Part shown: positions 31,916 to 33,687 of the stretch, piece after piece | Layout of the letters: the number at the start of each line of letters is the position of its first letter | Numbering within the stretch: the stretch's first letter is position 1 | IMG/VR virus record: IMGVR_UViG_2606217174_000009 | DNA: 35,320 bases | Reading direction: 5' to 3' (one strand) | Source: a virus | Lineage: Duplodnaviria > Heunggongvirae > Uroviricota > Caudoviricetes | The notes under the pieces: model-generated | The model's database searches: none | The model's input: the letters and a program-made list of their open reading frames with translations, nothing else | What the model was told of the DNA's origin: nothing | Made by a program: the position numbers and the translations under genes

Positions 31916-32219
31916 CGTCTTTTCTGCCTGTTTCTGAATTAAACAGAGTCAGAATAACAACCGCTGATAAATATGTGTTTTGCGGAAATTCAAAAAAAGC
32001 ATCACGGTACTTTTTGTGACGGAGCCGGTTAGGCAGGAACATAACGACAAAGGATGGACAGGCCAATACGATAACCGCATATTACCGGCTTATAATTGAT
32101 TTAACGATTCATGACGCTGCGGTCAGCATCTGAAAATATGCGTTATTTCAGAAACCCCTTGCCTGTATATGGCGATATTATTATTCCTGTTTTTATCATT
32201 GATTTACATGGTGATGTTT

Positions 32220-32741
32220 ATGCAACTGATTAATGTTAAACGATATTACCCGGAACAAAAACCCTTTGGTAATGATGTACAGTATTTTCAAAGTGAAGAT
32301 GGTAAGGATTTCTATGAGTCCCTGCCATTATTCACCAAAAAATATAAACTTTGCATAACCCCTGACAGCGGTGTTATCTGCTCAATATCACAGGATGCTT
32401 CGGCGCTGTATCCTGCGGGTTTTTCCGTTGTTGAGACAGACGAATTACCTGAAGGTACTGATATTTCAGGTAACTGGAAGTTTGATAATGGTGTCATCTC
32501 ACAACTCCCGGTTAACTATACCAAAAAAGCGGAAGCACTGCGCCAGTCATATCTTAATCAGGCATATGAAAAGATTAATGACTGGAGAACTGAGTTACAG
32601 CTGGGCACGATTAGTGATGAAAACAGAGCTGCGCTTACACGATGGATGAAATACATCAGTCAGGTGAAAAAAATGGAACTACCAGCGATTAAAAACAAAG
32701 CTGAATTTGACGCCATTAAATGGCCGGAGAAGCCTGAATAA
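32220..32741 (+). CDS. tfa: Tail fibre assembly protein (Tfa)
   Basis: C-terminus ...ELQLGTISDENRAALTRWMKYISQVKK...IKWPEKPE matches the conserved Tfa C-terminal motif; start uncertain (ATG at 32169, 32208 or 32220). Confidence 0.7.
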   Translation: MQLINVKRYYPEQKPFGNDVQYFQSEDGKDFYESLPLFTKKYKLCITPDSGVICSISQDASALYPAGFSVVETDELPEGTDISGNWKFDNGVISQLPVNYTKKAEALRQSYLNQAYEKINDWRTELQLGTISDENRAALTRWMKYISQVKKMELPAIKNKAEFDAIKWPEKPE

Positions 32742-32775
32742 CATAAAGGGTGCTTATCGCACCCTTTTCCTTTAA

Positions 32776-33687
32776 TCAGACGGATGAAACTGTGCGCCAG
32801 GCATTACCGATATATATCTGCACCGGACGGTAATAAACGCCTCCGATATTATCGGCTGAACTTTTCCCGGTATCCTGCACGTTAATACCTGAAAGCATAC
32901 AACCAGAAGGTGCACCATAACTCCAGGACATTTCATTACCTCCGGGTGAATGGTAACTCTGGGCACCAAGCTGAACGTTGCTAACGTATTTGTTATCAGC
33001 AGTAGCTTCAGTCATACCGGAGGTAATGTATATGTCCTGCGTCCCGTCAAAAGGAACGCCATTAATATTTCTTGGGGTGGAGAGTTTATTCGCGGCAACG
33101 GCGGTGCCGTCCGATGGCAGAGCATTCGCCGCCTTATTCACCGTTTCCCGTAAACCGACGTTATCGATAAAAGCCCCTTTATCCGGAATGTCTGCGCCGT
33201 TCTGCTCCCTGCGCAGGTAACGGTTATCACCTTCGCTTTTGCTGTAAACATCCAGATTATTACGGGCGGTTCCCTTATTCTCCAGGTCGGCGAGATTCTG
33301 ATCCTTCGCCAGGGCATTAACGTCACCGGGACCAAGACTGTTTTTTATGGCAAGCGTCCCCAGACCAAGATAACCACGGGCCAGACGCTGGGCCTCCGCA
33401 CCGGCATCAGCAATTTCTTTCAGGTTATTTTTCCGGGAAAAGGCATTCGCAGCGATAATGGCTTTAATGGACAGCGTAAGCTGGTTTAACTGCGCCTTAT
33501 CCGGCTGAATACTGGCTTCAGCCAGAATATTCAGCAGTTCGGCCTGGAGAATATTCAGCCAGTCCTGACCAATCCAGCTGATACCTTTTTGTCCGTCACC
33601 TTCGGTAAACCAGGTGGTGGTATTACTCTGCGCCGGTGCCAGCGCAGGCATATTCGCCACGCCGGAATTATTATCAACATGAAACAT
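32776..33687 (-). CDS. Tail fibre protein (P2 H / Mu S-like)
   Basis: 303-aa Gly/Asn/Ser-rich ORF directly downstream of tail protein I-like and baseplate J-like genes. Confidence 0.7.
   Translation of the reverse strand: MFHVDNNSGVANMPALAPAQSNTTTWFTEGDGQKGISWIGQDWLNILQAELLNILAEASIQPDKAQLNQLTLSIKAIIAANAFSRKNNLKEIADAGAEAQRLARGYLGLGTLAIKNSLGPGDVNALAKDQNLADLENKGTARNNLDVYSKSEGDNRYLRREQNGADIPDKGAFIDNVGLRETVNKAANALPSDGTAVAANKLSTPRNINGVPFDGTQDIYITSGMTEATADNKYVSNVQLGAQSYHSPGGNEMSWSYGAPSGCMLSGINVQDTGKSSADNIGGVYYRPVQIYIGNAWRTVSSV

Follow-up and report, generated by a model that had tools for sequence, protein, structure and literature searches.

In the C segment of phage P1, which is inverted by Cin, long inverted repeats encode a shared part of the fibre and the crossover sites lie at their outer ends; P1 has two tfa genes, and its repeats are 0.6 kb long. 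The arrangement of repeats and crossover sites was reportedly described by Hiestand-Nauer and Iida in 1983. Invertible fibre switches of this kind have long been known (PMC4406740, PMC4272514, PMC9881135). The inverted repeats of phage Mu are 34 bp (PMC4406740), the invertible P segments of defective E. coli prophages are inversion modules for fibre and tfa genes (PMC4272514, PMC12529663), and for the Shigella phage SfMu no host-range difference was seen, with a 1-bp change reported beside the crossover core in one repeat (PMC4406740). A narrow literature search found no paper on the single-tfa family described below or on its locked lineage.

The window analysed here is a stretch of 35,320 nucleotides which, from about position 27488 to its right edge, comprises the right end of a Mu-like transposable E. 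coli prophage. The genes are arranged in the order baseplate J/gp47, gp48, fibre, tfa, NanS-p-like esterase, DUF1378, DUF826, com, and mom (Table 1), and the order in the family, gp47-gp48-S ... gin ... com-mom, is that of Mu. Together with insertion at unrelated host sites, this gene order identifies a Mu-like right-end module; further Mu-like copies were observed in a molybdopterin oxidoreductase gene by torY and in a fimbrial usher gene by elfD. The initial annotation had noted that the fibre gene and tfa end tail to tail on opposite strands and had suggested a fossil of an inversion system like the Mu G segment. This suggestion was upheld, as relatives carry the full switch and the window keeps stubs of it, and we consider it very likely (probability of about 0.9) that the host-range switch of this Mu-like prophage, whose right end lies in the window, was frozen by an 871-bp deletion.

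Table 1. Features of the fibre locus and the surrounding prophage right end, in window positions
Feature	Position	Strand	Remarks
com and mom	27616-28353	minus	Pfam Mom; annotation of L001
Rest of prophage right end	27488-31915	minus	includes DUF1378 and DUF826; boundary at 27488 from blastn
NanS-p-like esterase	29861-31915	minus	Pfam SASA + DUF6645
3' remnant of Gin-like invertase gene	32002-32068	minus	21 codons, in-frame TAA
Deletion junction	32068/32069		871 bp of relatives missing
3' remnant of alternative tip S'v	32069-32133	plus	about 21 codons, decayed
Tail fibre assembly gene tfa	32220-32741	plus	sole tfa in segment; positional equivalent of Mu U'
Two-way terminator-like hairpin	32745-32767	both	9-bp stem, U-rich tails
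Tail fibre gene	32776-33687	minus	303 aa; PHROG 1833 and Mu S homology
Variable tip Sv of expressed fibre	32776-32993	minus	aligns with Mu S tip
Former Sc-side arm of inverted repeat	32994-33165	minus	now single copy
Orphan 26-bp gix-like crossover site	33145-33170	within fibre gene	fibre sense: TTATCGATAACG-TC-GGTTTACGGGAA
Fibre constant part Sc, aa 1-172	33171-33687	minus	outside former invertible segment
Mu gp48-like gene	33687-34247	minus	Pfam Phage_Mu_Gp48, E value 7.5e-22; upstream of fibre
Baseplate J/gp47-like gene	34238-35320	minus	PGAP annotation of near-identical L001; order as Mu 47-48-S

The fibre ORF matched "tail fiber protein" in a PHROGs search (E value of 3e-161) and the Mu tail fibre S (PDB 5yvq_A; E value of 9e-49), with residues 1-198 aligned to Mu S 1-191 and the tip, residues 228-302, to Mu S 434-503. 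Since Pfam gave zero matches for the fibre gene, as it also did for the alternative tip S'v of the relatives, the identity of the gene was taken from PHROGs, the PDB match, and synteny. The constant part, Sc, was 45% identical to Mu S residues 1-191 and was directly followed by the gix site, and the variable tip, Sv, was 54 to 63% identical to the tips of P2-like gpH and SfMu fibres. Between them, the former repeat arm, with window coordinates mapped from L002 via the blastn alignment, encodes a fibre portion common to both tips. The tfa product belongs to the tail fibre assembly family, scoring 74.5 bits against a curated cut-off of 22.1 for Pfam Caudo_TAP (PF02413; E value of 1e-20) and being homologous to a member of solved structure, Mu U (PDB 5yvq_B; E value of 4e-16). 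It was 33% identical to Mu U' and 30% identical to U and thus marginally nearer U'.

The convergent arrangement was confirmed, with corrections of detail. The tfa gene had been drawn as the longest ORF, from 32169; PGAP annotation of near-identical genomes and alignment to Mu U/U' place the real start at 32220 (MQLINVKRYYPE...). The gap between the two stop codons, given as 35 bp, is 34 bp (32742-32775). The hairpin located in this gap had folding energies of -14.8 and -17.0 kcal/mol (z of -3.6 and -4.0) on its two strands, and an equivalent hairpin was found in L002, L003, and L005.

The initial annotation had reported no recognisable crossover site. On the contrary, a 26-bp gix-like site, in full TTATCGATAACGTCGGTTTACGGGAA on the fibre sense strand, is present within the fibre gene and was the sole match to the Din-family pattern in the 35-kb window at up to three mismatches, about 0.04 being expected by chance. 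It agrees with Mu gixL (TTATCCAAAACCTCGGTTTACAGGAA) at 22 of 26 positions, has the same TC core, and occupies the same codon position as in Mu (FIDNVGLRETVN versus FIQNLGLQETVN), the codons FIDNVGLRE at fibre residues 173-181 corresponding to FIQNLGLQE in Mu S. Only this one site was found in the window, not two inverted sites with matching 2-bp cores. A search of positions 31800-33800 likewise found no inverted repeat of 16 nt or longer, and the repeat within the fibre gene was without a partner, an observation which became informative only once the relatives were compared. As initially stated, no invertase was found in the window, tblastn with a Gin-like protein giving no match.

Megablast of positions 31900-33800 against complete E. 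coli genomes returned 233 records, many with a "recombinase family protein" within the matched span. The same convergent fibre/tfa pair was observed in L002, L003, L005, L006, and many IMG/VR loci, and in an additional 871 bp these relatives also carried the gene of a Gin-like invertase, another gix site, and the alternative tip S'v. The window aligned with L002 (STEC299) and L003 (NCCP 13905) on either side of this extra sequence, and the flanks of close relatives with the full switch were 93 to 99% identical to those of the window. The intact relatives, in which convergence without an invertase had been named as the case that would speak against inversion, do have an invertase. It is a serine recombinase of 188 to 190 aa, 75% identical to Gin (E value of 5e-89), in which Pfam finds Resolvase and HTH_7 domains; it is present in L002, L003, L006, L007, and L008 and reduced to the 21-codon stub in the window. 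In the relatives S'v is a second, oppositely oriented fibre tip with its 5' part within the 871 bp, so that they carry both tips; in the window Sc and Sv are intact and S'v is down to the decayed codons of its 3' end.

In L002, a 172-nt inverted repeat, 92% complementary, extends over 6739-6910 and 7964-8135, the second arm lying inside the fibre gene. A gix site is located at the outer end of each arm, TTCCTGAAAACC-TC-GGTTTACGGGAA and TTCCCGTAAACC-GA-CGTTATCGATAA, with complementary cores and 0.01 such sites expected by chance; the one in the fibre gene is identical to the orphan site of the window. Two gix sites were likewise present in L003, L008, L027, and others.

Blastn showed that window position 32068 joins L002 position 6162 to position 7033. 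The 871 bp absent from the window comprise the bulk of the invertase gene, the gix site and the repeat arm on the gin side, and the 5' part of S'v. The missing 5' part of the invertase gene is where the Fis-dependent recombinational enhancer lies in the Din family. The invertase stub translates as IGLSILCRYVPA*PAPSQKVP*, compared with IGLSTLYRYFPASPAPSPKVP* in L003, and the S'v stub aligns with the end of L002 S'v (TAYYRP...), differing from that allele by a TGG-to-TGA change and by 2 nt in length. The breakpoints, one in the invertase gene and one in S'v, are nonhomologous and share at most 1 bp of microhomology. A deletion mediated by Gin was considered and rejected, neither breakpoint being gix-like and the junction lying off any site core. 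Since the breakpoints share no more than 1 bp and are unlike gix, the event was an illegitimate deletion and not the product of a recombinase; the "recombination scar" also offered in the initial annotation is apt in this sense only. It is the truncated and damaged state of the stubs that gives the direction of the 871-bp difference, a deletion and apparently not an insertion.

To reconstruct the other orientation, L002 was flipped in silico at both cores, which produced an Sc+S'v gene that remains in frame, with tfa 80 bp behind it on the same strand. With a query built from this flipped form, 32 of the 233 E. coli records showed the flipped order, and L007 and L008 confirmed the layout Sc-S'v, tfa, reversed Sv, invertase. 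The proteins of L008 were identical to those of L003, with the segment reversed. Unflipped, L008 and the IMG/VR locus L027 gave three alignment blocks, the middle one inverted; once L008 was flipped at the gix cores, the two formed one collinear block of 5359 bp at 99.81% identity. Since this block spans two repeat arms with a mutual identity of only about 85%, the exchange points are placed at the outer gix sites. The inversion between L003 and L008 leaves the outer repeat parts unswapped, suggesting that recombination or conversion also occurs inside the repeats and that some orientation differences are not clean Gin events. From the finished assemblies we infer both orientations among the relatives, whose invertase is probably active.

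Several further observations were made on the switch of the relatives. The variants at the outer ends of the repeat arms were not tied to orientation, all combinations occurring among near-identical prophages (L003, at 6740-6893 and 7929-8082, L008, L027, L029, L032, and L034), which again points to exchange or gene conversion within the repeats in addition to Gin-type flips. The orientations were also skewed: 32 records have S'v expressed and about 200 (about 86%) have Sv expressed or another layout, where equal flipping would give about half each. The skew points to slow inversion, combined with founder effects or clonal sampling. In L005 (3981-4540), L030 (1395-1963), and L031 (2744-3314), the invertase gene is frameshifted and both sites and both tips are kept, indicating that the switch is being lost by more than one route.

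These comparisons suggest a mechanism in which, in the intact family, a Gin-like serine invertase would recombine two inverted 26-bp gix sites, one within the fibre gene and the other beside the invertase gene, and thereby flip a 1.35-kb segment containing the two opposed tips with the single tfa between them. One orientation would give an Sc+S'v fibre with tfa behind it on the same strand, and the other an Sc+Sv fibre with tfa facing it across the shared terminator. In the lineage of the window, the illegitimate deletion made the Sc+Sv orientation permanent, since the invertase is gone and a single site remains. Besides this orphan gix site, the locus keeps a convergent tfa, likewise orphaned, and two gene stubs in decay. 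Every family member examined, in either orientation, had a single tfa, flanked by the two opposed tips and located beside S'v on the invertase side, which is the position of Mu U'. With a single tfa, one of the normal orientations looks convergent, as the window does without the 871 bp. Convergence itself is thus no product of decay; a single-tfa segment has two normal orientations, and one of them is convergent. The initial premise that a tfa normally follows its fibre gene on the same strand fails for this family; the conclusion reached from it was nevertheless correct.

Other explanations of the locus were considered. The deleted-type prophages occupy many insertion sites and mostly have an intact tfa ORF, which makes the arrangement compatible with a working phage. 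This would speak for a native convergent pair that was never invertible, in which tfa would be independent, with its own promoter, and unrelated to inversion. We regard this as extremely unlikely, since Gin-like and S'v stubs flank the junction, since the alignment of the flanks with L002 and L003 runs unbroken to the junction, so that the stubs are no chance similarity, and since the orphan gix site is at the Mu-homologous codon position and close relatives possess the full switch. Conversely, the segment might still be invertible, through an invertase supplied in trans (Pin-type, from another prophage) and a cryptic second site. Din-family invertases (Gin, Cin, Pin, and Hin) cross-react between systems and E. 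coli strains often carry pin genes, both of which count for this possibility, as does the one good gix site that remains. It is nonetheless extremely improbable given the single pattern match in 35 kb at up to three mismatches, the lack of any inverted repeat of 16 nt or more around the locus, and the one orientation shared by the deleted-type loci examined.

The allelic variation of the region would give some encouragement to a third possibility, in which the locus is misassembled or is a scar left by homologous recombination between two different prophages, in place of a deletion within a switch. The tfa and Sv alleles vary strongly among prophages that share the junction; between the window and M3, 54 of the 522 nt of tfa are different, against 96.7% identity in the junction region, which indicates that homologous exchange with other prophages has occurred nearby. 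Moreover, a second, lambdoid prophage in the window has a 1.7-kb inverted repeat to the Mu-like one. However, the identical junction was present in 16 independent assemblies, namely 7 complete E. coli genomes, 2 copies truncated by IS1, and 7 IMG/VR contigs, and it joins nonhomologous points with microhomology of 1 bp or less. An origin of this kind therefore appears very unlikely, and a deletion within an invertible segment is the reading we retain.

The prophages with this deletion were distributed over at least eight insertion sites: bcsA, flgK, citF, xdhA, flgL, cho, and two within prophages, one in a tail gene of another prophage and one, that of the window, in a lambdoid terS/HNH region. 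The strains came from humans, mice, and pigs and are unrelated. Every deleted-type locus examined was in the Sv-expressing orientation, the opposite one being absent there, and tfa was intact in 12 of the 13 loci, next to decaying stubs. The occurrence of the locked form at many different sites is most simply read as continued infection and integration after the deletion, with Sv fibres that would work. The locked phage thus apparently still spreads, and we infer that it makes working Sv fibres in the convergent layout. In E. coli JE86-ST05 (NZ_AP022815.1), at least two deleted-type copies were found, in flgK and citF (L094 and L097); many of their genes are flagged as frameshifted, possibly through sequencing error.

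Next, we considered how Sv might obtain its chaperone. In P2-like phages and SfMu, Sv-like tips normally precede a tfa, and in other phages such tips (up to 62% identical) are found directly upstream of homologues of the tfa of the window. Because Sv-like tips are usually paired with a tfa, Sv probably needs a chaperone of this type. In the Sv orientation, tfa faces the late operon. It is possible, though we hold it to be doubtful, that the single tfa serves both alternative tips despite facing the late operon in one orientation. Either tfa would have a so far unrecognised promoter that works in either orientation, or Sv, as a Mu S-type tip, would fold without a chaperone encoded alongside; if true, either route would add a new rule on how invertible fibre switches use chaperones. 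Hints in favour of a shared tfa are the prevalence of the Sv orientation, the pairing of Sv-like tips with homologues of this tfa, and the intact tfa beside decaying stubs. When the sequence preceding tfa was scanned for sigma-70-like promoters in the window and in three relatives, no sense-strand site proved to be conserved, and the counts were at the level of shuffled sequence. The dN/dS of tfa was about 0.12. In two carriers of the same junction, however, tfa differs by 10% and the adjacent stubs by about 3%, suggesting that the differences were imported by recombination, so that this ratio is uninformative on selection in the locked state. Two other roles for tfa were dropped. A cognate of S'v only had been considered for its U'-like C-terminal part, whereas in Mu Tfa it is the N-terminal domain that is reported to bind the fibre (PMC9608196). 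As for a chaperone of the neighbouring esterase, the invertase gene separates the two in intact relatives and tfa flips with the segment.

The remainder of the window, positions 1-27487, is a lambdoid prophage resembling Stx phages, with genes for a RecE-like exonuclease, Q antiterminator, DNA methylase, Rz, HNH, and terS. The Mu-like element is inserted in it beside HNH/terS, with the junction at about 27488, and this junction was absent from the complete E. coli genomes of the collection. A near-identity search of the phage collection found only two published Stx phages, each with an inserted Mu-like element. In the early region of the lambdoid prophage, positions 9320-12691 (plus strand) encode a protein of 1123 aa with a YobI-like P-loop NTPase domain (E value of 7e-123) which may be a defence-type cargo gene. 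The lambdoid prophage also has a NanS-p-like esterase gene (20414-22396, plus strand) with SASA and DUF6645 domains, the protein being 89% identical to that of the Mu-like esterase gene on the minus strand. The pair constitutes a large inverted DNA repeat (1010 nt at 93% and 687 nt at 85%) whose copies lie about 7.4 kb from each other and on which homologous inversion could act. Stx-type lambdoid phages appear to be the source of the esterase-DUF1378-DUF826 module in the Mu-like family.

A single deletion in a well-understood kind of switch accounts for tfa being convergent, for the orphan gix site, and for both stubs, and nothing exotic is needed. The main value of the analysis is therefore correct annotation. 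Of wider use are the findings that a Mu-like family of E. coli runs a G-type switch with one chaperone gene and not two and that a naturally locked lineage without invertase apparently spreads on. This lineage is a natural mutant with which to ask whether a Mu S-type tip needs a chaperone gene on the same strand, and what it costs a temperate phage to abandon host-range switching.

Compared with the G segment and Gin of phage Mu, the family is alike in Sc (45% identity over about 190 aa), in the codon position of gix, in the invertase (75% identity to Gin), in a tfa similar to U/U', and in its neighbours, gp47 and gp48 upstream and com-mom downstream. It is unlike Mu in having one tfa, with no equivalent of U after Sv, where both Mu and SfMu have two, in having variable parts of about 120 aa (about 330 aa in Mu) and inverted repeats of 150 to 172 nt (34 bp in Mu), and in the NanS-p-like esterase module located between the invertase gene and com; in addition, the copy in the window has lost the invertase gene, one gix site, and S'v. 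The geometry of repeats and sites in L002 and L003 resembles that described for the P1 C segment, although the family has one tfa and 150- to 172-nt repeats against the two tfa genes and 0.6-kb repeats of P1. The P segments (e14 pinE, Rac pinR, and Qin pinQ) are also fibre/tfa inversion modules in E. coli prophages, but they are located in lambdoid remnants, keep an active invertase, and still invert, whereas the locus of the window is part of a Mu-like transposable phage and has no invertase and one site. The G segment of SfMu, likewise a Mu-like phage whose switch is possibly frozen, differs in keeping gin, both sites, and the full S-U-U'-S' arrangement, and any freezing there would be due to a point mutation and not to a deletion. 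The copy in the window is best called a deletion-locked remnant and a homologue of the Mu G segment/Gin system.
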